Sequence record: NC_055712.1
DNA: 64,000 nt
DNA from: Escherichia phage phT4A
Direction: 5' to 3' (one strand)
Shown here: piece after piece, positions 2,706 to 60,303 of the stretch
Layout of the letters: every line of letters begins with the position of its first letter
Numbering within the stretch: the first letter of the stretch is position 1
Notes under the pieces: generated by a model
The model's input: only the letters and a program-made list of their open reading frames with translations
Database searches by the model: none
Told to the model about the DNA's origin: nothing
Position numbers and translations under genes: made by a program

Positions 2706-3299
2706 TCAAGGTTTACAAGTACGATACCACTTATCTAATTTTTCTGCAAGCATTTCGTTGATAATTTTTGCAATTTCGTACCGTCCGTGAGTAGTACCCA
2801 GTTCCAGGTAAATCACATCAAGTGCGCACACAATCGCATCAATACTTTCTTCAACGATATTACCGCCGCGTTGAGGCTGAATGAGACATTCGCTGATCTC
2901 GCCAACTTCCGCTGATAGGTGATGAACCACATCACTCTTCGTGCGTTTCTTCACTTTATGAGCGATTTCAAAAAACTTATCAAGTACGATCGCCGTTTCT
3001 TCTCGCGTTGCGGTATTCTCGGATGTTGTTTCCATCGCATTTCGCAAAACAGTTTCCAAAGATGTAAAATAGTTTTCAAACACGTTGAAAGGGATCACAT
3101 GAGGAACACCATTCAAAAACACCCCTTCTTTACAAACATAATGGATTTTGCGCGGAATAGACAAACCGCCGCTGCATTCCAAATGTCGTTTAATGCTTGC
3201 TACAAAATCGAAATCTTTCCCGTATCCAGCCAACATACTGTGATAAGTGAGTTGACCAATTTCAGGAACATAGAGATCATTTTCTTTATACAGATTCAT
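2706..3299 (-). CDS. hypothetical protein with C-terminal MazG-like NTP pyrophosphohydrolase-type helical domain
   Basis: C-terminal SAEVGEISE...EESIDAIVCALDV...EKLDKW pattern resembles MazG/HisE EExxE helices. Confidence 0.45.
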   Translation of the reverse strand: MNLYKENDLYVPEIGQLTYHSMLAGYGKDFDFVASIKRHLECSGGLSIPRKIHYVCKEGVFLNGVPHVIPFNVFENYFTSLETVLRNAMETTSENTATREETAIVLDKFFEIAHKVKKRTKSDVVHHLSAEVGEISECLIQPQRGGNIVEESIDAIVCALDVIYLELGTTHGRYEIAKIINEMLAEKLDKWYRTCKP

Positions 3300-3564
3300 T
3301 TACAATACCTTTATGGTAGCCAAAAATATAACAATCAATTGAAGGACGTTCACCAGGGAAGTGAATGCATTGCATGATGCGTTCAGCCATTAGATCTTCT
3401 CCCATGTATACCGAAGTAGTTTCTTCGTTGTAATGGGTATCATACGACGTTTTAAGCGTCATGCCCGGAAGCCCTGCAATGTGCATGAATTTAGAATTGG
3501 TGCAAGGTTTTCCTACTTCACCGTTAATCATCAACACTGCATTAGTTTTACGTGCTTTTCTCAT
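3286..3564 (-). CDS. hypothetical protein
   Basis: ORF; start placed at internal ATG 3564 that forms ATGA overlap with upstream stop. Confidence 0.45.
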   Translation of the reverse strand: MRKARKTNAVLMINGEVGKPCTNSKFMHIAGLPGMTLKTSYDTHYNEETTSVYMGEDLMAERIMQCIHFPGERPSIDCYIFGYHKGIVNESV

Positions 3565-4157
3565 TTGAATTTCACCCCGATTTGCGATACGTTCCATTCT
3601 TTTACTTCATCAACAATATCATAATGGTTGATGTATGGTAAAGCAATTTTTAAATTACTCGCGTCTTGAATGTTGCGTAAGAAACGAGTAGGAGAAAGAA
3701 GACACAACCGCTCGGATCCGTTGTTTCCTTTAGCGGCAAATGATAGGGTTTCTCCCCCGTCAATCTTCATATCAACAGAAATCGTTTTGAATTCTGGTGC
3801 GTATGACGTGATTTTGCCGTTGTCTCTCGGCGTACTATAGAAACATACACTTTGTGGGACATTATAACGATCTGTTTCAATGTACATGTAATCGCCGTCA
3901 GTCATTCCCCACGCGGTATAAAGGGATCCGGTATAGTCACCAAAGGAATTTTTAAAATCTTCCTTCGTGGTATATCCCAGCGAGCGCAATTGCATAAGCT
4001 GGTTATGCTGTTCGATTGCGTCGGCTTTTTGTTGTTCCTGTACTTGCGCATCAATCGTTTCTTGCCAGGAATTATACGCATAGTAACCCACAACAGCGAT
4101 TACAGCCATAACCCCTACAGCTTTCCAGATTTTAGCGTCTTCGTTTTTGTTACTCAT
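3561..4157 (-). CDS. hypothetical membrane-anchored protein (N-terminal TM helix)
   Basis: 198 aa; hydrophobic AVGVMAVIAVVGYYAY near N-terminus. Confidence 0.55.
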   Translation of the reverse strand: MSNKNEDAKIWKAVGVMAVIAVVGYYAYNSWQETIDAQVQEQQKADAIEQHNQLMQLRSLGYTTKEDFKNSFGDYTGSLYTAWGMTDGDYMYIETDRYNVPQSVCFYSTPRDNGKITSYAPEFKTISVDMKIDGGETLSFAAKGNNGSERLCLLSPTRFLRNIQDASNLKIALPYINHYDIVDEVKEWNVSQIGVKFK

Positions 4158-4196
4158 GCTATATTCCTTTTAAGAAAAAGGGCCGAAGCCCCTTTG

Positions 4197-4526
4197 TTAA
4201 CGAAGATAAACCACATAACCGCTTTGGTCAATCGCGCGGTCTGCGTCATTGAAGATATTACCACGAATGCCTTTTGCTGGTGCTTTCCAGCTTGCAGGTT
4301 TCAGGATATTACCATCATTATCGATGAAAGCGGCAACAGAACGCTGATTGAACATTTCACCAGTTTCTTTGTTGCGAGTATCCTGAACAACGCGATGATA
4401 TTTGCGGCCTTTCTCCAGAAAGAAAACAGTTTCGAAAGGAGAATCTTGGAAACGAGCGTTACGCGCTTTGTACATTGCTTCCATGAAAGGGGCTGCTTTT
4501 TCTGCGAGGATTTCGAAAGTGTTCAT
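4197..4526 (-). CDS. hypothetical protein
   Basis: 109 aa; SD AGGAGA upstream; preceded by conserved ATCGAAACGAAAC leader. Confidence 0.55.
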   Translation of the reverse strand: MNTFEILAEKAAPFMEAMYKARNARFQDSPFETVFFLEKGRKYHRVVQDTRNKETGEMFNQRSVAAFIDNDGNILKPASWKAPAKGIRGNIFNDADRAIDQSGYVVYLR

Positions 4527-4585
4527 GGTATATCTCCTAAAGTGTGTTTCGTTTCGATGTAAGTACTATATCAAAGATGGTTATT

Positions 4586-4810
4586 CTATGCAAGGCTTTT
4601 TTCGTTATCCATCAAATATTTTAAGTGTTCTTTTAATGCAGGGAGTTCGTTCAAATGGCGTTGCTTAACTTTCTCGTACTCTTTGCGTTCCCAGTTTTCA
4701 AGATTGCTTGCCAACGCTTCATCACAATAAGCGATCCCGCGTTCTGCATCCTGAACTTTCTGTTTCCATTGTGCAACTGCTTGTTGATAAAGAGAACCGT
4801 TAACCATCAT
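4586..4810 (-). CDS. hypothetical protein
   Basis: 74 aa ORF with SD GGGAGG upstream. Confidence 0.5.
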   Translation of the reverse strand: MMVNGSLYQQAVAQWKQKVQDAERGIAYCDEALASNLENWERKEYEKVKQRHLNELPALKEHLKYLMDNEKSLA

Positions 4811-4883
4811 AATAATTTCCTCCCTTGTTTCGATGGGGTAACTATACCAAAGCTACCCCAGAATGTTTTAACAAAAAGTGCTA

Positions 4884-5147
4884 TTAGTAGGTATCCAGTT
4901 TATACATTTTGCACCAGTTCATGAATTCTTCGAAAGTCTGAGTATTAACACGTTTTTCCTTCTTCACTTTCTTAGTGATTACAGGACGGTTAGTAAAACG
5001 TTTTTGCATTTTCACAGTGATTGCTACTTTATCGCCCAGGTCTTCAACCTTTTCAACCAGCGCCCACTGAGAACCAATTTCAGCGCCGAAAGTCAAACCA
5101 ACAATCTCACCTGCTTTAACGTGTGCTGCATATTTTACTTTAACCAT
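4884..5147 (-). CDS. hypothetical protein
   Basis: Start moved to MVKVKYAAH (ATG 5147); longer track ORF runs into the upstream hairpin/promoter. Confidence 0.5.
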   Translation of the reverse strand: MVKVKYAAHVKAGEIVGLTFGAEIGSQWALVEKVEDLGDKVAITVKMQKRFTNRPVITKKVKKEKRVNTQTFEEFMNWCKMYKLDTY

Positions 5148-5228
5148 TTTCGTATTCCTTTCTCTGTTTCGTTTCGATGAATACAAGATACCAAAAAGCC
5201 TCCCGCAATGCAAGAGGCTTCTTTAACA
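5148..5228 (-). repeat. promoter-stem-loop cassette, family R (copy 2 of 2; partner at 50961-51046)
   Basis: About 85% identical over ~75 nt to 50961-51046 in reverse orientation: hairpin containing TTGCAT, -10-like TATCTT, ATCGAAACGAAAC leader. Confidence 0.6.
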
Positions 5229-5235
5229 AAAAATG

Positions 5236-5538
5236 CTATTTTATTTCTTTGAGTAATTTACGGATCCCGCCGCCCTGTGTCTTATCAAAGATTTTCTTTG
5301 CATCAATAACAGAAGTGATTATGTGGTAGTTGTTACCTTTTCCGTCAAACTCAAACTCGACCTTGTAGTCACTACGAAATTTCACAAAAACAAATTCACC
5401 TGCAAAGTGCTTACGAAACTGTTTTTCGTTAATGTCCAACCATTCCTGTGTATCATCTAACTGATACATGCGACAAAACAGGATCGAACCCATTACAGCA
5501 ATCACGACAAGGATAGCTAACGCGAATTCTGACATCAT
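5236..5538 (-). CDS. hypothetical membrane protein
   Basis: 100 aa, N-terminal TM (LAILVVIAVMGSILF). Confidence 0.5.
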   Translation of the reverse strand: MMSEFALAILVVIAVMGSILFCRMYQLDDTQEWLDINEKQFRKHFAGEFVFVKFRSDYKVEFEFDGKGNNYHIITSVIDAKKIFDKTQGGGIRKLLKEIK

Positions 5539-5759
5539 TTACCCCTGTTTACTGATTGACGGTGCAATGATTTAGGCACAACCGGATTTCGGTATGGTTT
5601 GACTTTATGGATCGTGGGTTCTTCCCCAACCAAATTAGGAAATTGGCTGTTCCATTCCATCGAAAATGGATAGGGTGATGACTTTAACTCTTCGATCATA
5701 CAGTTTACTAAACGGTCGCCGATTACACCCAAAGCCGCCCCAATAATCGCTATACGCAT
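5535..5759 (-). CDS. hypothetical protein
   Basis: 74 aa ORF, ATGA-type overlap with neighbour. Confidence 0.4.
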   Translation of the reverse strand: MRIAIIGAALGVIGDRLVNCMIEELKSSPYPFSMEWNSQFPNLVGEEPTIHKVKPYRNPVVPKSLHRQSVNRGK

Positions 5760-5762
5760 AAA

Positions 5763-5912
5763 TCACCCCTTAATTGTGTCAAGTACAGTAAACCAGTCAT
5801 GAAGCCATATCGTTGTTCTTACAGCGATATACGTTAACAAACTAATCAATGATACCGCTCCGCAAATAGCCAGCGTAATCAACAGCCGGATTTCAAATTT
5901 AGTAAAATTCAT
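5763..5912 (-). CDS. small membrane peptide (49 aa)
   Basis: MNFTKFEIRLLITLAICGAVSLISL...; SD AGGAG upstream of ATG 5912. Confidence 0.45.
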   Translation of the reverse strand: MNFTKFEIRLLITLAICGAVSLISLLTYIAVRTTIWLHDWFTVLDTIKG

Positions 5913-5929
5913 ATCAATCTCCTTTCTGA

Positions 5930-5975
5930 GAACCCAATATAACAAAAGCCCTCAACCGAAGTCAAGGGCTTTGTT
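5930..5975 (-). repeat. promoter-stem-loop cassette, family S (hairpin with TTGACT in loop, then TATATT)
   Basis: aaagcccTTGACTtcggttgagggcttttgtTATATT on minus strand; related copies at 20950-20995, 50311-50385, 60250-60302. Confidence 0.6.
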
Positions 5976-6257
5976 TTAAATTTTTACTAGTTTTGGCAAT
6001 CGAAGAACTATACCAGGATGGATCAGACGTGCATCCGGAATAGAATCACGGTTGATTTTAGCGATATCAGGCCAAAGTTCACCAACACCATACAGTTTCT
6101 TTGCTATAGAATATAGGCTATCGCCTGGTTGCACGACATAGCGATCAGATTCAATCTTAACCAGATCCTGGTTAATGATATCATCAAAGGCTTTTGCTTT
6201 CGCTTCGTTAATCGTGTTCCCGTAGTAATGGCGATCCATAATAGTTAATGTGATCAT
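5976..6257 (-). CDS. small LysM-domain protein
   Basis: YVVQPGDSLYSIAKKLYGVGELWPDIAKINRDSIPDARLIHPGIVLRLP matches LysM consensus pattern. Confidence 0.6.
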   Translation of the reverse strand: MITLTIMDRHYYGNTINEAKAKAFDDIINQDLVKIESDRYVVQPGDSLYSIAKKLYGVGELWPDIAKINRDSIPDARLIHPGIVLRLPKLVKI

Positions 6258-6925
6258 CGTTTCTTTCCTATGCTGTTTTCGTCTGTCTCTTCTAAGGATG
6301 GAGGTTCTTCCAGCCCCAGGGCATAACGTTTAGCATAGATTAGCATCAATGCATCTTTAGCGCAATCATGAATCGAATCATGCTGAATGAATCCATCTAA
6401 CATGCCTTTACGTAGTGGACACGTGGTCACTCCGCGAGTCAGTAAACGGTTTTCAATAGCTGTACGCACATCACGGCTATTCCAGAACACGGTCGGCATA
6501 TCTTCAAACGTGTCAAGTTTCCCTGTCATAGTTCGTACAACATCGGTTAGCATAGAACGATCGAATTCAGGGCCGCGCGTATAATCGTATGACTGCCAAC
6601 GACTCACACCGTCAGCCGCTAAATCAGCAAAGAATTGTCGATGACCTTCGTACAAATCCATGTCGATATCGGAAGGGAACAAAACCCTTTGCGCTTCTTT
6701 AGATTGCTGTTTCCACCATTCGATCGTTTTTTCATCTTTGATGCGTTCTGGTTGTTTCCGGATGTCAAATTTGTACTTTCTTCCTTTAGCAATCAGTTCC
6801 TGAAAGGTAGGCGGATCATAAGGATCATCAACAAACGGAACATAGCTAAGTTCAGCTAGTTTTCCTTTTGGAAACGGGCCAATACTTTCATAATCAAATA
6901 CGAAATCTACGGGTAAATGACTCAT
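6254..6925 (-). CDS. dexA: exonuclease A (DexA)
   Basis: 223 aa; collinear similarity to recalled T4 DexA (TIEWWKQQS, TTCPLRKGMLDGFIQHDSIHDCAKD). Confidence 0.85.
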   Translation of the reverse strand: MSHLPVDFVFDYESIGPFPKGKLAELSYVPFVDDPYDPPTFQELIAKGRKYKFDIRKQPERIKDEKTIEWWKQQSKEAQRVLFPSDIDMDLYEGHRQFFADLAADGVSRWQSYDYTRGPEFDRSMLTDVVRTMTGKLDTFEDMPTVFWNSRDVRTAIENRLLTRGVTTCPLRKGMLDGFIQHDSIHDCAKDALMLIYAKRYALGLEEPPSLEETDENSIGKKR

Positions 6926-7206
6926 TCGCGACCCCGCTTATACGATTCCATGAAATAGGCCAATGATAGCGCGACTTCCGGAGTAACATCAACGGATTCG
7001 ATCATGCCTGGAGTTACTGCCATCATCCCGAACTGACGAAGCCCACAACGAGCAATCGATTTTTCCAGTCGGATCATGTTTTCTACAGCCTCTGTAAAAT
7101 TGTCCAGATGTTCCCAATCGTGGTAATCTTCCATTGTAGAACGATCACTTTTCAAAATCAGATCGGCAACCAATTCAGCATAAAGGCGCGGAAGGTGAAT
7201 ATTCAT
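6922..7206 (-). CDS. hypothetical protein
   Basis: 94 aa ORF. Confidence 0.5.
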   Translation of the reverse strand: MNIHLPRLYAELVADLILKSDRSTMEDYHDWEHLDNFTEAVENMIRLEKSIARCGLRQFGMMAVTPGMIESVDVTPEVALSLAYFMESYKRGRE

Positions 7207-7515
7207 TTAAAATCCCTCAAGCATGTTTTTGTTTTCACGAATGTTACGACCCATTTTCAAAGTATCAATGATCACTGCATACTCTTCAAAAGTGAATTCG
7301 ATATCTTGTGAAATGTTTCCCCACGTGTAGGTCGGCCCGTTAGGACAGTATAACCCAACTTCTTTGTTTGCGTTGACAACGCAGCGCAATTTTGCAAACA
7401 ACAAATTGATATCGATAGAATTGAACCCTTCGAGATAATCAAGCCCCTCTCTACCAATACGGTCAACTTCTCGCAAAATCTTTTCTACATCTTTGACTTT
7501 AACAATAATTTTCAT
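7207..7515 (-). CDS. hypothetical protein
   Basis: 102 aa ORF; CUUCGG-type hairpin immediately upstream. Confidence 0.5.
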   Translation of the reverse strand: MKIIVKVKDVEKILREVDRIGREGLDYLEGFNSIDINLLFAKLRCVVNANKEVGLYCPNGPTYTWGNISQDIEFTFEEYAVIIDTLKMGRNIRENKNMLEGF

Positions 7516-7539
7516 AATAACCTCAAAGGGCCGAAGCCC

Positions 7540-8868
7540 TTAGACATAATCAACAGTGAATCGTGCGCGGGTAGTTCCTACATAAAGCAACTGCTTACAC
7601 AATTCATAATCGGCGTATGCGTATGCATCGCGCGTATACATGTATGAATGATCATACGTGCTTCCCTGACCTTTGTGATACGTACAAACCGGAAGCGCCT
7701 TAACCGTCTGGAACTTGTTTTTGATTTGCCAGAACGAATACCAGGGGGCTTTGTATCCGGTTTCCTGTTTCATCTTTTTATACTGAAACGCGACGTAGTT
7801 CAAATAATCGCCTAAACGTTCCTGCATAACCGGATCCGCGATAACCTGAATATCCGCTTTCGTATCCTCGAACATCGATTCTGTTTTCATCAAGAAATAA
7901 TCGATTTGTACCGGATCGCATCGGTCAGCTTTGATAGTATCAGAACGCGGTATGATTTCAAGGATTTTAATTTGCTCGTTGTTGTTATAGATAACTTCAA
8001 CAAACGAAACCCCATTCACACGGCCTTCTGTCACTAACGGTTCTTGCATCACAACCACTTCACCAACAATGAACGGCTGATCAGTTTTGTACAAGTGTTT
8101 ACGGATCACTGCGTTTAACTTGTCTACGTTTGCGTTAGTGTAAGCAAACATACGGTTATTGTTCAGGTCATCCGGAGTCTTAACACGGCTAAAATAACGT
8201 CTCAGGAAGTCACCAGCGTTTTCGTGCTTCATTACCCCTAGTTCACCATTCATGAGGGGCATTAACGGCTTACCGTCGCGTATAGCGCGTGATACCTGGA
8301 TGATTGGGTTTCCTTCTGCCTGACGCATAATCTTATCCATGCGAATGACATCAAAAATTTCCTCATCAAAGAACGGTGAAAGCTCGGTGATCCCTTCGGT
8401 ATTAACAGGACGGATCTGATCCTTATCACCCAATCCCAGGATCACCGCACAACTCGGAATAGTACGCTTGATGATACGGAATAGTTCTTTGTCAACCATC
8501 GATACTTCTTCAACCACAAACACACGACATTCAGACAGATCAGCGGCTTTTTTGCCTTTTTGCTGTTCAAATACTCGTAACTCTTCGTTGGTTACGGGGC
8601 TGATTTTCAGTGCTGAGTGAATGGTCGTTGCATCCATACCCACCGCCTCAGAGAGAACGTTTTTAGCCTGGTGCGTCGGTGCTGTCAACCAGATCCCACT
8701 AATACCCAGTTTTTTCAATGTTTCAAACACAAATTTTACCAGAGTAGTTTTACCAACACCCGGCCCACCTGTGATAGTAGTATGGATTTTGTTTCTGATA
8801 TTTTTAATCACTCGATCATGTGCATTTTTCTGGTCTTCGCTCAGATCGTCAAAAGTTAATTCGCTCAT
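7540..8868 (-). CDS. dda: Dda DNA helicase (SF1)
   Basis: 442 aa; Walker A GGPGVGKTT; collinear with recalled T4 Dda. Confidence 0.9.
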   Translation of the reverse strand: MSELTFDDLSEDQKNAHDRVIKNIRNKIHTTITGGPGVGKTTLVKFVFETLKKLGISGIWLTAPTHQAKNVLSEAVGMDATTIHSALKISPVTNEELRVFEQQKGKKAADLSECRVFVVEEVSMVDKELFRIIKRTIPSCAVILGLGDKDQIRPVNTEGITELSPFFDEEIFDVIRMDKIMRQAEGNPIIQVSRAIRDGKPLMPLMNGELGVMKHENAGDFLRRYFSRVKTPDDLNNNRMFAYTNANVDKLNAVIRKHLYKTDQPFIVGEVVVMQEPLVTEGRVNGVSFVEVIYNNNEQIKILEIIPRSDTIKADRCDPVQIDYFLMKTESMFEDTKADIQVIADPVMQERLGDYLNYVAFQYKKMKQETGYKAPWYSFWQIKNKFQTVKALPVCTYHKGQGSTYDHSYMYTRDAYAYADYELCKQLLYVGTTRARFTVDYV

Positions 8869-9155
8869 ACTTTAATCAATACCCCTTGAATACTTGCGTG
8901 TTCAATAAACCAACGCATATCTTTCTTTTTCTTTTCGGTTACGGTTTCAACTTCTTCCTTTCGAAAGAATCGGCTAAGACCACTTTGTTTAACTGGATTC
9001 ATCTTATCATGATATTCTTTGATAATCGAATTTTTATACTCGTTAGCATCGTCCGGAGATAGAAACAACAAAGGTGTTAACTCTCCTTCCTTAATGAAGG
9101 GAATTTTAAACCCGTCTTTATCCTTACTAACGACGATATAATATTTTGTAATCAT
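8865..9155 (-). CDS. hypothetical protein
   Basis: 96 aa ORF. Confidence 0.5.
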   Translation of the reverse strand: MITKYYIVVSKDKDGFKIPFIKEGELTPLLFLSPDDANEYKNSIIKEYHDKMNPVKQSGLSRFFRKEEVETVTEKKKKDMRWFIEHASIQGVLIKV

Positions 9156-9391
9156 TCTCGCCCCTCATAACAAACGTAGAATATTCCAACAAACCAAAAC
9201 ACTGATAGTATAATCAGTAAAAGTTTTCTTTCAACGCCATTTACGTGAAACACACACCAACCGAAAAGATATGTGATCATCGCGCAAACACCATAAGAAA
9301 GAACCCCAACAGCTACTAGCATCAAAAAGTGCCATTGATCGATACTATAAATATAATAAAGGAGATTATACATGATATCGACCGTAAGCAC
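9152..9391 (-). CDS. hypothetical membrane protein
   Basis: 79 aa, two hydrophobic segments; extended -10 (TGTATAAT) upstream. Confidence 0.4.
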   Translation of the reverse strand: MLTVDIMYNLLYYIYSIDQWHFLMLVAVGVLSYGVCAMITYLFGWCVFHVNGVERKLLLIILSVFWFVGIFYVCYEGRE

Positions 9392-9555
9392 AATAGTTGT
9401 TCATGCTCATTATACAACAACTCCCGTATTTGAAGGAGATATCTACACGTTCAAATACACTTTTCCTATCGAACAGATAGTTCAATTAATGAAAAATAGA
9501 CATCCTATCGGATGGATTACCCCAGCAACAAAACATCTACTAAGGAACACCATCG

Positions 9556-10215
9556 ATGGACTACCGTAAAATTTACACCAATCTTATAGAAAAAGCAAGA
9601 GATAGAACACTAAATTGTTACACAGAAAAGCATCATATCATCCCCCGATGTATGGGAGGTTGTGACGATCATGATAATTTAGTAGAACTTACCGCAGAAG
9701 AACATTATGTAGCCCATCAACTTCTTGTCAAGATGTATCCACACAATAATAAGTTGATATATGCTGCTAATATGATGTGCGTCAACGCAACACAGAGAAA
9801 TAATAAAGCATATGGATGGATCCGCAGAAAGTGGATATCTCAGATATCAAAAGACAGGACAGGGACAAAGGCAACAGAAGAACAACGCAAAAAGATGTCA
9901 GAATCCCATAGGGGAGACAAAAACTCTATGTATGGGTTACGCGGTGATAATCATCCTGCTTATGGTCAAAAACCCTGGAGAAATCAAATAACAATGAAAG
10001 GAAAGCATGAATGGAGGTATGCTGGGATTTTCTATGACTGGTATATTAACGATATTAAAGCTGGAATCTATAAAAGACAAGGACACAAGAGAATGCTACA
10101 AGAATTGCAAATTGCAACAATCTCCCGTGTTCCTAGAACATCAATCGAGTTATTCAAAAAGGGGTGGAACCCTTACGAAGATACCGATTGGGTTGAGTGG
10201 GCTAATAATCAATAG
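9556..10215 (+). CDS. freestanding HNH homing endonuclease (Mob-like), opposite to flanking genes
   Basis: HHIIPRCMGGCDDHDNLVELTAEEHYVAHQ HNH motif; paralog of 31484-32209. Confidence 0.8.
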   Translation: MDYRKIYTNLIEKARDRTLNCYTEKHHIIPRCMGGCDDHDNLVELTAEEHYVAHQLLVKMYPHNNKLIYAANMMCVNATQRNNKAYGWIRRKWISQISKDRTGTKATEEQRKKMSESHRGDKNSMYGLRGDNHPAYGQKPWRNQITMKGKHEWRYAGIFYDWYINDIKAGIYKRQGHKRMLQELQIATISRVPRTSIELFKKGWNPYEDTDWVEWANNQ

Positions 10216-10745
10216 CTGTTGGCCCAACGACGAAGATTTTCGGCTTGTTTAAGAGCGTACATCTTATAAATTGTTTCTGCATCCATACCCAATGCAATAA
10301 ACTTACATAGTACAAAGTGGAATTGGTCGATCATTTCAAACAGAACTTCTAAACGATCCTCTTCACTCAGATCCGCAAATTTAGTATTGCGCAATTCCTG
10401 GTGATTTGCTTTCCACGGTTTCCAAACACCGGATGCAGGTTTAACACCGCGAGACATTCCACCCAGAGCGGTATACAATTCGCGGGTTTCGTCGGCGATC
10501 GCGTCGTCTTGCAGTTTCAGCCAATCAAGGATTTCTCCGCAAGTTTCCAGATTATCAGGACGCGGAACCCAATGCAGGGTATCAGACAGGCTTTGTTGCG
10601 CATGGTTTTGTAAATCCAGCATGGATTGTAAAGGATCGCCATTACGGGCCAGAACCTTTTGATATTCGGAATCTACAAATTCCAGATCTTCCGGGTTAAC
10701 CAGGTGCGCACATGAATTAAATACAGGAGTTTTATCAGTAGTCAT
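10209..10745 (-). CDS. 56: dCTP pyrophosphatase (gp56, MazG-like)
   Basis: 178 aa; collinear with recalled T4 gp56 (CAHL, DPLQ.MLD.Q, FELVDIFHFVL-like). Confidence 0.85.
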   Translation of the reverse strand: MTTDKTPVFNSCAHLVNPEDLEFVDSEYQKVLARNGDPLQSMLDLQNHAQQSLSDTLHWVPRPDNLETCGEILDWLKLQDDAIADETRELYTALGGMSRGVKPASGVWKPWKANHQELRNTKFADLSEEDRLEVLFEMIDQFHFVLCKFIALGMDAETIYKMYALKQAENLRRWANSY

Positions 10746-10752
10746 ATCAATC

Positions 10753-11778
10753 TCATTTTTTCGGTGATTTGTCCCACGACTTAAATCGAAGTTTTGCCGT
10801 GAGTCCAGAAACAGTATTATCTTTCAAATACTGCATAATTTCAAGTTTAGTTGCGCCGTCCGTTTTTATCATTTCGTTGATATCTTTGGAAGGCCACGGG
10901 CATTTATCCCACATTACAACCTTTTCTCCAGCCTCAATCAATTTAAAGAGGCGGTGAGTAGTATCCGGATGACGTGCTTCATTGTCAAGAACCCAGACAC
11001 GCATATTTTTATACGGAACCTCAGAAAGTGCAAGCTGTCCACCAGTGATAGCGCCAGCATTATCAACAAACAGGCTATCTAATGGCCCCTCAAGAAGATA
11101 AACCGTTTTTAGCGGATCTATCGTATCCTGTCCGTAAATCTTGGTTGATTCTTCACAGGCTTTGATTGTGATATATTTCGACTTTGCCCCGTCGCGTAAA
11201 GCACGACCCTGGAAAGATTCAATTTTCCCTTTCTTATCGAAGATAGGGATCACTAATCTCGGTTCTGGTTTTGCGATCGGATAGGTATCCGGATTCACCG
11301 TATTAACCAGTTGTTGCCATTCGCGAGTAAACCACAACCGATCCCACTTGTCACGGGGGATACAACGATTCTGCACATATTTTATGATCGGATGTTCATC
11401 CGGCAAGGTATCTAACCTTTCGCAGAATTGAAGAGTAGGAATAAATTTCTTCTCTTCCTTCGGTTGTTCTGTATGCGTTGGCTTTAACGAATTGCGATCC
11501 TTAAACGATTCCATGAGATAATCACGGTAATCGTCTGGATAATATTCTTTCAGGAATACGCTAAACGGTACACCATAACCACAGTTAAAACAACCACAAT
11601 TCATATGATCACCCTTTTTAGAAGGGTAGATCCAAAATCGTTTTTTGTACTTGTCTTTCATTGAGTCGCCGCAAATAGGGCAACGCGCATTGATGCTTAA
11701 TGCCCCCGATTTACGAACGATTTCGCTTTGAGGCAGTGATCCCATGATTCGGGTTGCAAATTCTATATCAAGATACAT
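10753..11778 (-). CDS. 61: DNA primase (gp61)
   Basis: 341 aa; N-terminal zinc finger CPICGDS, TOPRIM-like core. Confidence 0.9.
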   Translation of the reverse strand: MYLDIEFATRIMGSLPQSEIVRKSGALSINARCPICGDSMKDKYKKRFWIYPSKKGDHMNCGCFNCGYGVPFSVFLKEYYPDDYRDYLMESFKDRNSLKPTHTEQPKEEKKFIPTLQFCERLDTLPDEHPIIKYVQNRCIPRDKWDRLWFTREWQQLVNTVNPDTYPIAKPEPRLVIPIFDKKGKIESFQGRALRDGAKSKYITIKACEESTKIYGQDTIDPLKTVYLLEGPLDSLFVDNAGAITGGQLALSEVPYKNMRVWVLDNEARHPDTTHRLFKLIEAGEKVVMWDKCPWPSKDINEMIKTDGATKLEIMQYLKDNTVSGLTAKLRFKSWDKSPKK

Positions 11779-11781
11779 TTC

Positions 11782-12042
11782 TTACCTCAGTTGACTATCT
11801 TTAGATCCTCGTCGATTATACCCCGCGCTGATCATTTCGTCATGTTCTTTTTGGCATTCAATACAATAACGGCAACCCTTCACGATAGCCCTACGTTTTT
11901 CGGGTATCGGATCCCCACAATCAAAACAATGCGTTAATGATTCTCCGTTTCTGATTTGAGAACGTGCAAAATCTATCGCATTGTCTATTGTTGCCTGAAT
12001 GGTATCTTGAACACCGTCAGCAGGGCCAAATCCAACCGCCAT
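11782..12042 (-). CDS. DksA/TraR-type C4 zinc-finger protein
   Basis: CFDCGDPIPEKRRAIVKGCRYCIECQ. Confidence 0.65.
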   Translation of the reverse strand: MAVGFGPADGVQDTIQATIDNAIDFARSQIRNGESLTHCFDCGDPIPEKRRAIVKGCRYCIECQKEHDEMISAGYNRRGSKDSQLR

Positions 12043-12097
12043 TGTAAATCCTCCTAATCAAATGATTTCAATATCATAGACTAAGAGGATTTTTCTG

Positions 12098-12316
12098 TCA
12101 AGAACTTACTTGCTTTTCTGTTCCGTCAAGCATTAACTTCCAACCACGAAATGCCTGTTTAAACGAATAATTTATTGCAATATCAATTTTATCAGAACCT
12201 TTTCGACGATTCTGATAAACGGTCGCGTTGTCACTCATATACATGATACAAATTGGAAACCATGTATAATCGTTAGCAGTAGCCCAGATAGTGATATTCA
12301 GCGGAGGAATTATCAT
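12098..12316 (-). CDS. hypothetical protein
   Basis: 72 aa ORF. Confidence 0.4.
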   Translation of the reverse strand: MIIPPLNITIWATANDYTWFPICIMYMSDNATVYQNRRKGSDKIDIAINYSFKQAFRGWKLMLDGTEKQVSS

Positions 12317-12801
12317 TTCTTTTTCCTTTTCCCTGCACGGGTAACGCCTAATACTTTCGGCCCGATGTTGGTTACTGCTCCAGTAGTCACACCAGAAGCA
12401 ATCTTTTCTGTATCGCCGCCAGAATCACCCGCGACCATATCCTCTAACATGCGCCCCTTATCATAATATTCTTTGAGGCGTGGAACGTTCAACATGATTT
12501 CTTCATGCTCTTGTTCTGTCAGATTGTAGCGATTGCGTAGGGTATCATATGAACTGGTTAAGTTCATAAACCCACTCATATACGGAACAGCATTCATTCT
12601 ACGCTTGATATGGCGTACTGAACGATGAAAAGGAGAATACGCTTCTAACTCTTCTTTTGTTTTGGGGTTGCGAATTACTTCGCCTTGTCCATCAAGGATC
12701 CCCAGCTTGTAAGCAGTCCATTCAGTCCAGGGCTTTTTGAGTAGCCGGATCATCCGGACGCTATATGTTAAATCCATATTTTTAACTAATTGATCACTCA
12801 T
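12313..12801 (-). CDS. hypothetical protein (basic C-terminus)
   Basis: 162 aa ORF. Confidence 0.5.
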   Translation of the reverse strand: MSDQLVKNMDLTYSVRMIRLLKKPWTEWTAYKLGILDGQGEVIRNPKTKEELEAYSPFHRSVRHIKRRMNAVPYMSGFMNLTSSYDTLRNRYNLTEQEHEEIMLNVPRLKEYYDKGRMLEDMVAGDSGGDTEKIASGVTTGAVTNIGPKVLGVTRAGKRKKK

Positions 12802-12806
12802 GATTA

Positions 12807-13583
12807 TTACTCTATTGTGAAAGTGAATAAATCAGATTTGGTTTCAGGTTCAAACTCCATACAAACAACCTCGCATAGTGGTTTAACCCCTTTCCAATCC
12901 TCCAGGTAATACCCAGTATCTATACCGCATCCAGGATTCATAACGAGGCCAGTTTCATCAAGAAACTTTTTGCATTTACTTGATGTGGTGCTGTCATCTT
13001 GTCGGAAACAGTGTGTTTTCGAATACCGGAAATTTGCAGACATTTGAGGGATTATGAAAGTTCCCTGACGTGCGATCTGTGATGCACGTTCGATTACTTT
13101 ATACTCAAATTCTGCCCCTGTATACTTACCCTTAAAATCAGAGGTTTTGATTTTACCAAAAGGCGGGTTACTGATCGCCATATCAAACACCTGATTAAAT
13201 TCAGTTGTTAAGGCGTCTCCATGCACCCAGGAGGCTTCTGGTACGATACGCTTACCTAACTCATAGTATGTGTGATTTAACTCAACACAGACGATTTCAC
13301 GCGGCGTATTGTACATCATGTAATGAACCATAGCGAAAGATAACCCACCGATACCAGCACACAGGTCAATAACACTTCCACCTGTGCAAGCATCGATTGT
13401 GAAATCGCGAGCAAGTCCAATAGGGGTAAAGAACGCCCCTAATTCAGAATTGTTTGTAAACGCGCCTTCATGAAAGTTTTCAATAATGAACAACTTCTCT
13501 TCGTAAGTTAGCGCTTTGTCAGAGTGAACCAGATCCATTATCTGATTGTGTTTCTTGGTTTCCGCTTTCGTTAACTTTGCCAT
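12807..13583 (-). CDS. putative N6-adenine-type (gamma-class-like) methyltransferase
   Basis: Motif order FFTP (X) -> VIDLCAGIGG (I) -> NPPFG (IV); start placed at MAKLTK (ATG 13583). Confidence 0.65.
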   Translation of the reverse strand: MAKLTKAETKKHNQIMDLVHSDKALTYEEKLFIIENFHEGAFTNNSELGAFFTPIGLARDFTIDACTGGSVIDLCAGIGGLSFAMVHYMMYNTPREIVCVELNHTYYELGKRIVPEASWVHGDALTTEFNQVFDMAISNPPFGKIKTSDFKGKYTGAEFEYKVIERASQIARQGTFIIPQMSANFRYSKTHCFRQDDSTTSSKCKKFLDETGLVMNPGCGIDTGYYLEDWKGVKPLCEVVCMEFEPETKSDLFTFTIE

Positions 13584-13911
13584 TTTCCCAGCTATACAAT
13601 AATGTTGATTCATTCGGATAGAATTCCCATCCGTCCACGTATCCGGTTTCCCAGTCAGTAGTTTGTTCAAAACCACAGATCCATTCATACACGCCAGGAG
13701 GCATTTCGACAGAATCAGGAAGCCCGATATCTTCCGCGCTCCGTCCACATTCAAAGAATGCATCATGAATGAATGGTCGAGATAATACCGTAACATAACC
13801 TTCATCGTCAACAGCTACGATCCAGCGGGAACTATGAGGACTATCGAACTTCGGTTCTTCTTCGTCTGCGTCAGCTTTTATTTCAGCCTTACAAAAATCT
13901 AAATTCATCAT
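13519..13911 (-). CDS. hypothetical acidic Trp-rich protein (overlaps methyltransferase 5' end)
   Basis: 130 aa ORF, protein-like composition. Confidence 0.5.
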   Translation of the reverse strand: MMNLDFCKAEIKADADEEEPKFDSPHSSRWIVAVDDEGYVTVLSRPFIHDAFFECGRSAEDIGLPDSVEMPPGVYEWICGFEQTTDWETGYVDGWEFYPNESTLLYSWENGKVNESGNQETQSDNGSGSL

Positions 13912-14195
13912 TTCAAACCCTCTTTAACACCCTCTTTCATAGCTTTCCAGGTAGAACCTGCTTCACCATTCAGGGCGGCAAATACAAATAATAAGATAGC
14001 AAGGACAAGATTCACGCCAGCAATCACCATGATTTTGCTATACACGAAAATGTAAGGCATTGCCACCACCCACCAACTAAAAGAATTACCAGTTACGATG
14101 TTGAGTGCTGCAAGTAAGAAAGTGATAACGAATGCGATTTTCATAATGTCCTCCTTTGTTATGATTAAGGTATCATCTTTTTTGAAAGAATGCAA
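13908..14195 (-). CDS. small membrane protein (2 TM)
   Basis: 95 aa, two hydrophobic helices. Confidence 0.5.
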   Translation of the reverse strand: MHSFKKDDTLIITKEDIMKIAFVITFLLAALNIVTGNSFSWWVVAMPYIFVYSKIMVIAGVNLVLAILLFVFAALNGEAGSTWKAMKEGVKEGLK

Positions 14196-14205
14196 TACCT
14201 ATAGA

Positions 14206-14232
14206 TACAAAAAAGCCCCGAAAGGGGCTTAA
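14206..14232 (-). terminator. terminator hairpin AAGCCCCTTTCGGGGCTT plus U-run (minus sense)
   Basis: GC stem followed by T-run downstream of gene 14237-14491. Confidence 0.5.
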
Positions 14233-14236
14233 TTTT

Positions 14237-14491
14237 TTATGCGTTATTGATGAGATACCGAAGAACGTTTTTCGCTTGTTCCTCATTACAACCAACTTTG
14301 AAACCAGGTTCGATAGGGAGGAAGTTCCAGAGGAAATCAACACTTCCTTCAACGTCATCTTTGCCTTTTTCCAGCATCGCTAACAGCAAACCTTTGTTTT
14401 TGATGCTGTTTACGATTGCGTCAAAATAACCATCGCTGAAATCAACATTCGGGTTCAGCATTTCGTTGTAAGGGTTGTTGAATACGTTCAT
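14237..14491 (-). CDS. hypothetical protein
   Basis: 84 aa; SD AGGAG. Confidence 0.55.
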   Translation of the reverse strand: MNVFNNPYNEMLNPNVDFSDGYFDAIVNSIKNKGLLLAMLEKGKDDVEGSVDFLWNFLPIEPGFKVGCNEEQAKNVLRYLINNA

Positions 14492-14535
14492 TTTGAATCT
14501 CCTTTGTTTAACTCAGTATCTTGTCTACGTGAGTT

Positions 14536-20949: not shown

Positions 20950-20995
20950 ACACCCAATATAACAAAGCCCCTGCACGAATGCAAGGGCTTTTTGA
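20950..20995 (-). repeat. promoter-stem-loop cassette, family S (TTGCAT variant)
   Basis: aaaagcccTTGCATtcgtgcaggggctttgtTATATT on minus strand. Confidence 0.55.
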
Positions 20996-21358
20996 TTAGT
21001 GACCGATCCGGTACTTGTACTTGAGGATCCAATCTGCTTTTTGCGAGTGAGTCAGTACGCGGAAGTTGTTTTCTTCTGCAAACTTCAACCCAGGGGTTAC
21101 GATCTTAACCATGCCCCACTCTTCGAGAAGTCGCGCAATGTTGTTCCGGCGTAGTTCGTCTTCTTCCGTCATATCGACTTGACGACCATCGAGTTTCAAC
21201 AGTTCTTTAAAATGCACGATAAAATACTTACCTTGCTTTTTCAGAATGTGGCACGATTGCCAGAGCATTTTCTTTTTGTTATTTGCAATACCAATACGGG
21301 TTAGCGTTTCACGGATCTTTAAAAAAGAATCGTCGCTGATTAGTTGAATTTCTAACAT
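20996..21358 (-). CDS. regA: RegA translational repressor
   Basis: 120 aa; ETLTRIGIANNKKKMLWQSCHILKK...DGRQVDMTEEDE matches recalled T4 RegA. Confidence 0.85.
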   Translation of the reverse strand: MLEIQLISDDSFLKIRETLTRIGIANNKKKMLWQSCHILKKQGKYFIVHFKELLKLDGRQVDMTEEDELRRNNIARLLEEWGMVKIVTPGLKFAEENNFRVLTHSQKADWILKYKYRIGH

Positions 21359-24988: not shown

Positions 24989-25648
24989 TTAGTTTAGTTT
25001 GATTAACGTTTGTTTCATTAAGTTTCGATATTTTATGATATCTTTTTCAGTAAGGTCAAATATTTTTCTGTATGCCTTTAACTTAATGCTAAAGTCAGAC
25101 CAAATAATATCATCAGCTACTTGATCGTGTTTATTTATGATACCTAAAAATGAGTCAAAAATCAAAAACGATTCGTAAGATATCACATTTGACAGGACAA
25201 GTTTGCTTATGTAGGACGTTGATGATTTTTCGCTGTACTTGAACACCAGAGACACGGGGATCTCTTTCATTTTGGCGAATTCGTACACGTTTTTAACGTC
25301 ATCCACAAACACGTTATCTAGTCTTTGTAACTTTCCTATGTACTGCCTGTAAAAGACAATACTATCTTCATCAACATCGCCTACCCAGAAATCCGGATTG
25401 GCTACGAAGTTGGAGAGGAATATAAAATAGATTTCTTTGAATGTAAAGCGTTGAGCTAATTTTACAAAGAAATATCTATCCTTTCGCTTGTTAAAGGCGT
25501 TTTCACTAACTTTGATCTGCCAGTTGTATTGAAGGACATCAAAACGCCCCTGGAAATGAGTTTTCATCGCCAGATATAACTTGTATACAGACAAAGGCAC
25601 AAGCCGTGAATTCGCCTCGCTATCAGCAAACGGAGCTTTGAATCTCAC
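24989..25648 (-). CDS. 59: helicase loader (gp59)
   Basis: 219 aa; collinear with recalled T4 gp59 (SVYKLYL, YNW, SIKLKAYRKI). Confidence 0.85.
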   Translation of the reverse strand: MRFKAPFADSEANSRLVPLSVYKLYLAMKTHFQGRFDVLQYNWQIKVSENAFNKRKDRYFFVKLAQRFTFKEIYFIFLSNFVANPDFWVGDVDEDSIVFYRQYIGKLQRLDNVFVDDVKNVYEFAKMKEIPVSLVFKYSEKSSTSYISKLVLSNVISYESFLIFDSFLGIINKHDQVADDIIWSDFSIKLKAYRKIFDLTEKDIIKYRNLMKQTLIKLN

Positions 25649-45752: not shown

Positions 45753-45802
45753 CCTTATAGTTAATCCCGTAGACAAGAAAACACTTTTATGAGGATGACA
45801 TT

Positions 45803-50310: not shown

Positions 50311-50385
50311 AAAAAGCCCTTGACTCCGGTCGGGGGCTTTGTTATATTGGGCCTATCGAAACGTAAATCACTAAGAGAATATATT
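50311..50385 (+). repeat. promoter-stem-loop cassette, family S (hairpin with TTGACT, TATATT, ATCGAAACG)
   Basis: aaaagcccTTGACTccggtcgggggctttgtTATATTgggcctATCGAAACG. Confidence 0.6.
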
Positions 50386-50955
50386 ATGACTAGTAGTTAT
50401 CAGAAACACAAAACCCTTATGGCAAACCTGTCCGGTAAACATATCGACGAAGTAAAATCTCTGCTGACAGTAACCGAAGGTTCCCGTTTTGACACAAATC
50501 ACATTATCAAACCTTCTGTGAAGAAAGTACTGAAAGTGATTTACCGACATCCGGTGTATCAGTGCGTTCATATCATGAACAGCAACGCATTTATTTTCGT
50601 ATATAACGAATCCGATGATAAGTGTGTTGGTATTTTCCGAAAACCTAACTTTGAATGCATGAGCGAAGCGGCTGTTGCAACCCCGATCGTTGAAGAATAT
50701 CCGGATTATGTTCAACGCAACATGCGTTATGTGCAATCCCGACTTGATTATGCATACGATTTCAATTCTGACGCGGTAGAAGCGCTGGCGGATATCCTTT
50801 GCAAAAACCAGAAAGATCGTCAAATGACAAAATATCTGACTGACCCAACACCGTCAACAATCCGAATTTCTGTCGAAGTTCCGTTTGAAAATCATTTCAT
50901 GGCGGTTGAAGCACTTGCTAAACTTGGTTTAGAAGTGAAAACAGAAGCCGTTTAA
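50386..50955 (+). CDS. hypothetical protein
   Basis: Start at MTSSYQ with SD; 189 aa. Confidence 0.5.
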   Translation: MTSSYQKHKTLMANLSGKHIDEVKSLLTVTEGSRFDTNHIIKPSVKKVLKVIYRHPVYQCVHIMNSNAFIFVYNESDDKCVGIFRKPNFECMSEAAVATPIVEEYPDYVQRNMRYVQSRLDYAYDFNSDAVEALADILCKNQKDRQMTKYLTDPTPSTIRISVEVPFENHFMAVEALAKLGLEVKTEAV

Positions 50956-50960
50956 TAGCA

Positions 50961-51046
50961 CTTTTTGTTAAAGAAGCCTCTTGCAATGCAGGGGGCTTTT
51001 TTGTATAGTGTGTTCATCGAAACGAAACAGACAAAAGGAACATCAC
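50961..51046 (+). repeat. promoter-stem-loop cassette, family R (copy 1 of 2)
   Basis: Hairpin containing TTGCAA, TATAGT -10, ATCGAAACGAAAC leader, SD; ~85% identical to 5148-5228 reverse strand. Confidence 0.6.
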
Positions 51047-51337
51047 ATGAACTTCATCGATATCAACAAAGATTTGGAAGGTAAAAACATCAAACTCGTT
51101 AACCGTGAAATGTTAGAGAGTCTTGGTAACGGTGGCGAAAAATTCAGTGAAGAATTCTATAACAATTTATCGTTGATGACGGTCAAGCGCGTTGATGTTC
51201 AGGGTGGTTCTGGTTGGGTTTCTGCAATTCCGGTTTCCCTTGTAGATCAAGCAACATATGACCCAGTTGCGGATTCATGGGATCTGGAAATGCCGTTGGT
51301 ATTCGAAGAAGTCATGAAGTGTTACGAAATCGCATAA
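51047..51337 (+). CDS. hypothetical protein
   Basis: 96 aa; start at MNFIDINK. Confidence 0.5.
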   Translation: MNFIDINKDLEGKNIKLVNREMLESLGNGGEKFSEEFYNNLSLMTVKRVDVQGGSGWVSAIPVSLVDQATYDPVADSWDLEMPLVFEEVMKCYEIA

Positions 51338-60232: not shown

Positions 60233-60249
60233 AATGTATTCCTCATTGT

Positions 60250-60302
60250 TTTCGATAGAACCAATATAGCAAAAAGCCCCGACCGAAGTCAAGGGCTTTT
60301 TC
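60250..60302 (-). repeat. promoter-stem-loop cassette, family S
   Basis: aaaagcccTTGACTtcggtcggggctttttgcTATATTggttctATCGAAAAC on minus strand. Confidence 0.6.
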
Positions 60303-60303
60303 A

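Follow-up and report, generated by a model that had tools for sequence, protein, structure and literature searches.

We analysed a 64,000-nucleotide stretch of Escherichia phage phT4A (NC_055712.1), referred to throughout as the window, for a 13-bp motif, ATCGAAACGAAAC, that lies immediately downstream of promoter-like -10 hexamers. Positions 3000 to 8000 of the window are 99.8% identical to Klebsiella phage vB_KM5a1_KLB10 (Straboviridae, Slopekvirus; KLB10 below) and also match more than 100 related phages, and the window belongs to a Slopekvirus, a T4-like Klebsiella phage. In the annotated relative the early and replication region is of the T4 type, with genes for topoisomerase, dexA, dda, primase, gp41, uvsX, gp43, gp45, gp32 and others, and small hypothetical genes are numerous.

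A 13-bp motif at a fixed distance from -10 hexamers

Exact copies of ATCGAAACGAAAC are found three times on the two strands of the window, at 4546-4558 (-), 5166-5178 (-) and 51016-51028 (+), where only 0.03 are expected, and three or more copies were reached in none of 100 shuffles. The copies lie 29-31 nt 5' of the ATG codons of open reading frames (ORFs) at 4197-4526 (-), 4884-5147 (-) and 51047-51337 (+), and each is preceded on its own strand by a -10-like hexamer (TATAGT, TATCTT and TATAGT, respectively) that ends exactly 6 nt 5' of it. The original prediction that the 13-mer precedes three unrelated genes is thus borne out, as is its association with -10 hexamers, although the spacing is exactly 6 nt at every site and not the 6-7 nt that had been proposed. 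Three shorter versions, ATCGAAA followed by C or A, also stand 6 nt 3' of a -10, at 4827-4834 (-), 50355 (+) and 60247-60256 (-), and the gap is identical at all six sites. The second and third of these, ATCGAAACG and ATCGAAAACA, both follow the hexamer TATATT of a cassette type designated 'family S'; their existence had been recognized previously, although the latter was placed some 4 nt away at 60251-60260, and the list of sites, while accurate in its entries, had overlooked the copy of ATCGAAAC at 4827-4834.

The shorter forms are not over-represented as such. The 8-mer ATCGAAAC alone shows no significant excess (8 matches against 4.0 expected), but five of the eight copies stand at the common -10 offset, and what departs from chance in the shorter forms is their position relative to the -10, not their abundance. 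The exact and degenerate scans proposed as a check on the motif place the exact 13-mer above chance but not its loose variants, those with three mismatches being at chance level (38 against 34), and the condition set for refuting the proposal, equal frequency of the motif inside genes, does not hold. One further ATCGAAAC copy, at 25022-25029 (-), lies within the gene annotated as DNA helicase loader, 5 nt after TATCAT, with TTGACC 17 nt further 5', and may be an internal promoter or a chance match. The six genes downstream of the promoter-proximal sites are all small (74-189 aa), their products lack significant mutual similarity (best E = 0.016), and the five of them that are covered by the relative's annotation are hypothetical proteins there.

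Anatomy of the six sites

The elements read from the sequence at each site are listed below, with +1 denoting the predicted transcription start.

Site A, motif: 4546-4558 (-), 13-mer ATCGAAACGAAAC; predicted +1 is the A at 4558; the leader continues to the Shine-Dalgarno sequence AGGAG and the ATG at 4526
Site A, core promoter: 4565-4593 (-), -10 TATAGT at 4565-4570 preceded by TGa; 17-nt spacer; -35 TTGCAT at 4588-4593
Site B, motif: 5166-5178 (-), 13-mer; predicted +1 at 5178; leader ATCGAAACGAAACAGAGAAAGGAATACGAAA, then ATG at 5147
Site B, cassette: 5185-5238 (-), -10 TATCTT at 5185-5190 preceded by TGg; stem-loop at 5193-5223; upstream repeat TAGCATTTTTTGTTAAA at 5222-5238
Site C, motif: 51016-51028 (+), 13-mer; leader ATCGAAACGAAACAGACAAAAGGAACATCAC, then ATG at 51047
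Site C, cassette: 50956-51009 (+), upstream repeat TAGCACTTTTTGTTAAA at 50956-50972; stem-loop at 50977-50994; T-run; -10 TATAGT at 51004-51009
Site D: 4827-4883 (-), ATCGAAAC at 4827-4834 with predicted +1 at 4834; discriminator TACCCC; -10 TATAGT at 4841-4846
Site E, family S: 50313-50363 (+), stem-loop at 50313-50340; TGt and -10 TATATT at 50343-50348; gggcct; ATCGAAACG at 50355-50363
Site F, family S: 60247-60294 (-), stem-loop at 60277-60294; TGc and -10 TATATT at 60263-60268; ggttct; ATCGAAAACA at 60247-60256 with predicted +1 at 60256

Site A, laid out as TTGCAT-17-TATAGT-acttac-ATCGAAACGAAAC..AGGAG..ATG, has neither a stem-loop nor an upstream repeat. Sites B (TTGCAT-17-TATCTT-gtattc-ATCGAAACGAAAC..AAAGGA..ATG) and C (TTGCAA-17-TATAGT-gtgttc-ATCGAAACGAAAC..AAAGGA..ATG) are the arms of an 82-nt inverted repeat with 89% identity, the second arm of which lies at 50954-51035. 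The terminator-like stem-loop at site B encloses its -35 (TTGCAT, 5208-5213), and those at sites C, E and F likewise contain TTGCAA (50981-50986), TTGACT (50320-50325) and TTGACT (60287-60292); the predicted targets of sites E and F start at 50386 and 60232. Site D, whose predicted target is ORF 4586-4810, has no -35 hexamer and only an extended -10, spanned by the inverted repeat GGGGTA..TACCCC, and its upstream repeat TAGCACTTTTTGTTAAA (4867-4883, -) begins 49 nt before the predicted +1, a T1-like geometry. A terminator-like stem-loop is therefore joined with the promoter at five of the six sites (counting GGGGTA..TACCCC at site D, and with none at site A); in the hairpin cassettes the -35 is inside the hairpin, and the terminator T-run plus a G gives the TG of the extended -10. 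Four promoter types precede the motif within the window, and at sites E, C and F a promoter scan identified TTGACT-17/18-TATATT and TTGCAA-17-TATAGT, with the -10 ending 6 nt 5' of the motif. The motif is thus independent both of the type of promoter upstream and of the gene downstream.

The family S cassette, AAAAAGCCCTTGACTnCGGTyrGGGGCTTT(T)TGyTATATT, is found at 5934-5981 (-), 20954-21001 (-), 50311-50351 (+) and 60261-60308 (-), and consists of a terminator hairpin with its own -35, the T-run of which supplies the TG of the extended -10. A second promoter-proximal leader, CGTAGACAAGA, is present at 14519-14529 (-) and 45768-45778 (+), 6 nt after the hexamers TAATAT and TATAGT and preceded by aaaaaGGTA/GTTG-TTGAC(C/T) -35 regions (2 matches against 0.01 expected); a third copy is located elsewhere in KLB10, and the ATCGAAAC motif is therefore not the sole conserved transcript start in the phage.

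These cassettes closely resemble the promoter-early stem-loop (PeSL) cassettes of T4-type phages (Arbiol et al. 2010, PMC2839356; Comeau et al. 2014, PMC4122927), in which a strong sigma-70 promoter and a terminator are combined 5' of ORFans in hyperplastic regions, and which are documented recombination substrates (PMC2839356, PMC4122927). As in PeSLs, a compact intergenic module in a hyperplastic region, situated 5' of small ORFan genes, carries a sigma-70-like promoter whose -35 and -10 are separated or overlapped by a GC-rich stem-loop terminator; its upstream part is AT-rich, and it ends in a Shine-Dalgarno sequence and start codon. This anatomy is present at five of the six sites. The two PeSL descriptions consulted make no mention of a conserved initial-transcribed sequence (PMC2839356, PMC4122927), whereas here it is the best-conserved part; moreover, site A has the motif without a stem-loop, and the cassettes described here extend to phage families other than the T4 type. 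The motif constitutes the 3' part of PeSL-type terminator-promoter-leader cassettes and is not phage-specific. In the KP27 annotation these cassettes appear as a 'putative middle promoter' overlapping a 'putative terminator', and the annotated feature ends at the -10. In MotA-dependent middle promoters of T4 the -35 is replaced by a MotA box, (a/t)(a/t)(a/t)TGCTT(t/c)A, whose centre is near -30; inspection by eye found no TGCTTtA at the six sites, whose -35 regions are TTGCAT, TTGCAA, TTGACT or AAAAC, and in this respect they do not resemble such promoters.

The whole KLB10 genome contains 11 ATCGAAA sites exactly 6 nt after a -10, at distances of 19-33 nt from an ATG. Comparison with KLB10 revealed no PeSL-type insertion or deletion at sites E and C, which are collinear apart from point changes. 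Elsewhere, landmarks present in both genomes change in coordinate relative to KLB10, by about +860 nt over the interval from about 8000 to 14500 and then by about -350 nt over that from 14500 to 45800, and the window phage and KLB10 therefore differ by several insertions or deletions. No start-site mapping for Slopekvirus was found in the literature.

The upstream repeat and a motif-blind sample of T1-like promoters

The upstream repeat of sites B, C and D, TAGCA(C/T)TTTTTGTTAAA, is present at 4867-4883 (-), 5222-5238 (-) and 50956-50972 (+) with 0-1 mismatch and is co-oriented with the downstream gene; with up to two mismatches there are 8 matches in the window against 2.2 expected. It is the same sequence as the 21-nt direct repeat aaATAGCACnnnTTGnTAAAA of phage TLS, which occurs there in 18 intergenic copies about 76 nt 5' of start codons, and whose function was left as an open question, with a stoperator, an enhancer site or an UP element being suggested (PMC11447400). 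At site D the repeat is likewise 76 nt from the start codon (4886 to 4810) and oriented with transcription; at sites B and C, by contrast, this distance is 94 nt because of an extra 11 nt and a longer leader, the repeat lying 11 bp further 5' with a true -35 in between. TLS is a T1-like phage, whereas the genome carrying the repeat here is T4-like. The description of the TLS repeat does not extend to a fixed-distance -10 or a conserved transcribed motif (PMC11447400).

The repeat provides a means of collecting promoters without reference to the motif. A scan of viral contigs with the upstream-repeat 17-mer recovered several copies per ~50-kb contig and at least 157 distinct repeat-containing stretches, and in 91 of the 157 listed the best -10 is at one fixed position. 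Choosing only by upstream repeat and fixed-position -10, we obtained at least 94 distinct T1-like promoters from 54 loci. The consensus of their positions +1 to +13 is A-T-C-G-A-A-A-C-G-A-A-A-C, exactly the 13-mer, with counts out of 94 at +1 to +7 of A 85, T 56, C 61, G 68, A 72, A 70 and A 77, and at +8 to +13 of C 55, G 49, A 70, A 76, A 48 and C 40. In register, the promoters agree with the 13-mer at an average of 8.8 of 13 positions, against 2.9-6.8 out of register, and 43 of the 94 match at 10 or more positions. Information content is 0.5-1.4 bits per position over +1 to +13, compared with 0.1-0.6 in the discriminator. Position -1 is C in 72 and a pyrimidine in 90 of the promoters, and -14 is G in 82, consistent with an extended -10; the consensus has no -35 hexamer at normal spacing. 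T is strongly depleted in a strand-asymmetric manner, appearing in only 0-3 of 94 at each of +4 to +7 and +9 to +11, a restriction that relaxes from +13, with T reaching about 20% from +19. Because this sample was drawn blind to the motif, the 13-mer is the consensus start of a whole promoter class and not just a repeat within the window.

Distribution in other phages

A search with a 93-nt cassette matched 366 phage records. The leader ATCGAAACGAAACAGA(C/G)AAAAGG is found at the equal -10 distance in Pectobacterium phage POP12 (Straboviridae), Cronobacter phage PBES02 (Vequintavirinae), Salmonella phage 19, Klebsiella phage P1 (Drexlerviridae, Webervirus), Escherichia phage vB_EcoS-26046III (Drexlerviridae) and Cronobacter phage leB (Pseudotevenvirus). 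In leB, which belongs to a different genus, all 29 nt of the leader are unchanged, whereas the products of the orthologous downstream genes, compared by eye, show clear sequence divergence; in a Webervirus the leader and upstream repeat are kept but there are differences in the hairpin, the -10 and the discriminator. Slopekvirus and Drexlerviridae have entire cassettes in common, upstream repeat included, with 72-76% identity over 92 nt, and a near-identical family S cassette with the full motif is present in the rV5-like phage PBES02. In POP12 alone (positions ~365-425 of the matching locus) an inverted copy, GTTCGTTTCGAT, lies 19 nt 5' of ATCGAAACGAAAC, the two flanking the -10 TAATAT, and this pair could be a hairpin or a symmetric site.

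A second viral-contig scan, using exact matches to the 14-mer ATCGAAACGAAACA, yielded at least 121 usable occurrences. A -10-like hexamer stands at offset 6 in 83 of the 121 listed, compared with 0-6 at any other offset, whereas in a control set of species-representative bacterial and archaeal genomes, covering all bacterial phyla, the 14-mer has a -10 at offset 6 in 5 of 120, one of these being again a pL leader of the kind described below. The T4-type -10 plus leader has no match in 5,426 E. coli genomes, and we therefore reject the idea that it is a copy of a host sequence. Neither the 13-mer nor the upstream repeat was found as a sequence string in the body of literature searched. The element is a widespread promoter-proximal sequence of putative function and not a local curiosity, and the cassette that it belongs to is common to T4-like, T1-like, rV5-like and phi80-like phages, a broader range of phage families than would have been expected.

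At least 68 of the 121 listed viral occurrences run on as ATCGAAACGAAACATCGA, behind about 20 different operator-bearing promoter types. They represent the pL leaders of lambdoid phages of the phi80 type, with matches to phi80 and HK225; they have boxA-like sequences, and in one example are accompanied by an N-like gene with an arginine-rich N-terminus. Leaders of this type are present as prophage in 125 of the 5,426 E. coli genomes, including DH5alpha and DH10B. In the phi80 record (GenBank JX871397, M11919, for phi80 and related lambdoid prophages) the annotated pL -10 is at locus positions 889-894 and the 14-mer starts at 901, 6 nt later, and the predicted transcript thus opens with the identical 14 nt; like the cassettes of the window, pL is a strong early promoter used by the host RNA polymerase. 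In phi80, unlike in the window, the motif is followed by a long untranslated leader with boxA/nutL and by the N gene; CI operators are located 5' of it, and there is neither a terminator hairpin nor an adjacent Shine-Dalgarno sequence. The window leaders are accordingly not themselves of the phi80 pL/nutL type, since only the first 13-14 nt are common and a Shine-Dalgarno sequence and ORF follow within 23-31 nt. In the minimum-energy fold of phi80 the 5' end pairs weakly over a long range with the N start region (z = -1.9). Beyond the 18 nt with which all phi80-type leaders begin, ATCGAAACGAAACATCGA, there are two continuations unrelated to each other, CAGCTGAGCGAAG and TGCGGCAGACGG, each of which leads to a boxA-like sequence (phi80 positions 901-970); the start is therefore a mosaic boundary or a separately conserved unit.

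The motif as a putative initial-transcribed sequence

The explanation that we favour, and to which we give roughly an even chance, is that ATCGAAACGAAAC is the consensus initial-transcribed sequence (+1 to +13) of modular, strong sigma-70-type phage promoter cassettes, where it would fix the start site and speed promoter escape. Such a cassette comprises, in order, the upstream gene's stop codon, in some cases the 17-21-nt repeat, usually a terminator-like hairpin, the -10, a discriminator of 6 nt that varies in sequence but has a pyrimidine as its last base, and then the motif, followed by a Shine-Dalgarno sequence and start codon, with the hairpin T-run providing the TG of the extended -10 and the stem or loop possibly carrying the -35. 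It would act in cis on the host RNA polymerase. The pyrimidine at -1 and the A at +1 would set the start 7 nt after the -10, in keeping with the usual start-site preference, and the T-free stretch with its purine runs (GAAA at +4 to +7 and +9 to +12) would avoid the T-rich and pyrimidine-G patterns near +6 that slow escape, so that polymerase could quickly leave promoters to which it binds tightly; the same bases would keep the 5' untranslated region free of U and unstructured.

Several observations are consistent with this explanation. The earlier suggestion that the motif forms the first nucleotides of several transcripts finds support in the fixed 6-nt offset, the pyrimidine at -1, the A at +1 and the phi80 pL annotation, and transcription probably begins at the A of the motif. 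Initial transcribed sequences from which polymerase escapes slowly have two or three T's in the first ~7 bp and TG, TA, CG or CA near +6, whereas GG or GA near +6 and strong purine stacking favour escape, and changes in this region can alter promoter output more than 10-fold (PMC5961368). The composition of the motif, with its T-free stretch and purine runs and without TG or TA near +6, fits a functional initial-transcribed region; the T-depleted range of +4 to +11 matches the promoter-escape window and supports a role in escape, and the motif may improve both start-site choice and escape. PeSL promoters, moreover, are strong (PMC2839356). All of the computational evidence agrees with a shared initial-transcribed or leader signal, as was first proposed, although the processing role suggested alongside it has no specific support.

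Comparable sequences are known from individual promoters. T5 PN25 and T7 A1 have a purine-rich transcribed region starting with AU directly behind a strong sigma-70 promoter, and the T7 A1 transcript, which starts AUCGAGAGGG, has AUCGA in common with the start of the motif. Kammerer et al. (1986, cited in PMC5961368) reportedly described such initial-transcribed ('downstream') regions in strong coliphage promoters. These are single promoters with no cross-family consensus, however, whereas here a 13-nt consensus is seen at tens of promoters in several families. We also considered a stretch of the lambda N leader (AUACGAAACGAAGCA), half-sites of the LacI family (CGAAAC|G), the consensus sequences for IHF and for NAD capping, the -10 of sigma-32 promoters (CCCCAT) and the ARN motif of Hfq, but retained none of them, since each either fitted poorly or was beyond the reach of sequence analysis.

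There are nonetheless observations that weigh against an escape function. The +1 position is a prediction at every promoter. Many promoters do without the motif: other promoter-like sites of the KLB10 genome lack it, and ATCGAAA follows only two of the four family S cassettes. In KLB10 the ortholog of site C (position 93625 of the KLB10 record, about 18905 in the locus examined) has a C-to-T change at +3 (ATTGAAAC / ATTGAAACGAAAC) as the sole difference in the cassette, and the motif is therefore not indispensable. It also contains CG at +3/+4 and +8/+9, and pyrimidine-G steps can pause polymerase (PMC5961368), although their effect is strongest near +6, where the motif has AAA. Finally, escape needs composition and not obviously 13 specific bases, so that the conservation hints at something more specific, and avoidance of T or U is explained equally well at the level of RNA.

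Selection on the RNA is indeed the main rival to the escape explanation. An A-rich, U-free leader at the mRNA 5' end could load ribosomes efficiently, lack RNase E sites and perhaps be a poor substrate for 5'-end-dependent decay, a proposal that we consider rather unlikely but by no means negligible. The 90-nt 5' regions of the six window sites fold worse than shuffled sequences (z = +0.8 to +1.7; in 160-194 of 200 cases the shuffle was as stable or more so), and the motif is mostly unpaired in the folds; on the same result we reject a structured RNA element. Depletion of T/U is confined to one strand and continues, in weaker form, as far as the Shine-Dalgarno sequence, and in the lytic phages the motif occupies the entire space between +1 and that sequence. 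Because RNase E needs a U two nucleotides 3' of the cut, the 'U at +2' rule (PMC5222698), a U-free leader would offer it no sites. The phi80-type pL 14-mer, however, heads a ~400-nt untranslated nutL leader with no nearby start codon, so a role in ribosome loading is not general; the distance to the start codon varies (19-37 nt) while that to the -10 does not, and U-avoidance peaks at +4 to +11 instead of being even along the leader. Complementarity of the 13-mer to 16S rRNA is also unusually low: its best duplex has -5.9 kcal/mol, compared with a mean of -9.8 for shuffles, and it pairs worse than 199 of 200 of these, and we reject a translational enhancer acting by 16S rRNA pairing. Since the motif is tied in position to the -10 and heads both short translated and long untranslated leaders, a role at the transcription start or the RNA 5' end fits better than one in ribosome binding.

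The motif might instead have no function of its own, being kept only as part of mobile cassettes that are copied, exchanged between co-infecting phages and homogenized, and to which it supplies homology. Sites B and C as arms of an 82-nt repeat, the cassettes common to Slopekvirus and Drexlerviridae and the known recombination of PeSLs (PMC2839356, PMC4122927) are all in keeping with such exchange, but conservation is higher in the motif than in the discriminator and hairpin 5' of it, and the motif stands behind otherwise dissimilar promoters (site A, family S and the ~20 pL operator types). The motif-blind sample, furthermore, gives a degenerate consensus with position-specific preferences, which argues for selection at many independent promoters and not for recent copying; pure hitch-hiking is therefore less likely, and we judge it improbable. 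Somewhat more doubtful still is a specific recognition site, in DNA or in the nascent RNA 5' end, for a host or phage factor such as an RNA-binding protein, a processing enzyme or a regulator governing the timing or shut-off of early promoters. Conservation of sequence and not just composition at 11-13 positions across unrelated families of Enterobacterales phages would be accounted for in this way, as would the tandem CGAAA and the inverted copy GTTCGTTTCGAT 19 nt upstream in POP12, where the pair brackets the -10. There is, however, no known candidate factor; the motif has no general dyad symmetry, its 5-nt period is ill-suited to helix-turn-helix dimers, and it is not enriched away from promoters. 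No Rfam family was matched at the gathering threshold by six loci from outside the window (three lambdoid leaders and the P1, POP12 and PBES02 cassettes). Any such factor would also have to be host-encoded, because T4-like, T1-like, rV5-like and lambdoid phages share few proteins.

Resemblance of the upstream repeat to a class II marbox

The marbox is defined as gcannwwntgnnaaa, and in class II promoters a forward marbox overlaps the -35 with its centre at -36 to -55 (PMC12052159); that of micF is at about -41, in the form CACT-N7-AAA (PMC8811837). Both GCACTTTTTGTTAAA and all three window copies of the upstream repeat fit the definition at 10 of 10 positions in the forward orientation, compared with 9 of 10 for the micF marbox. 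Relative to the predicted +1, the repeat is centred at about -40 at site D and in the 94 T1-like promoters, and at about -51 at sites B and C. Ungapped alignment on the -10 places micF (AGCACTGAATGTCAAAAC-18 nt-TAGAAT) and site D (AGCACTTTTTGTTAAAAC-18 nt-TATAGT) in the same register with 14 of 20 bases identical over the marbox, although the micF transcript start lacks the motif and two of the three window repeats are one helical turn further 5'. The upstream repeat thus fits a putative class II marbox in both sequence and geometry; a role as an UP element, suggested by the TLS authors, is possible.

A tblastn search with E. coli MarA returned 126 records, none of them a Klebsiella phage and with no Drexlerviridae or Slopekvirus among the best 25. 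A phage-encoded MarA-like activator thus finds no support among the matches listed and was rejected, and any activator would most likely be the host's. We found no link in the literature between marboxes and phage promoters. Together the motif and repeat might define a host-switched promoter class of Enterobacterales phages, in which a class II marbox (for Rob, MarA, SoxS or RamA) is combined with a AUCGAAACGAAAC start acting as a sequence-specific host-factor element; we offer this as a speculative and on balance unlikely proposal.

Implications

Promoters are usually defined only as far as the -10, yet the best-conserved part of this widespread cassette is on the transcribed side, and the same 13 bases are found where transcripts are predicted to start in enteric-bacterial phages of at least four unrelated lineages. 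If functional, the motif would represent a natural portable 'start module' for strong expression and a marker of early promoters for phage annotation. In the TLS genome, for instance, no more than three sigma-70 promoters were identified by its authors (PMC11447400). The marbox fit makes the question left by the TLS repeat testable, as dependence of T1-like and related phages on the host Mar/Sox/Rob/RamA activators, which are also controllers of antibiotic resistance. If these promoters are indeed host-switched, a second recognition role would explain why T1-like, T4-like, rV5-like and lambdoid phages have the same 13 bases, and phage expression would be tied to the stress, bile or antibiotic-response state of the host.

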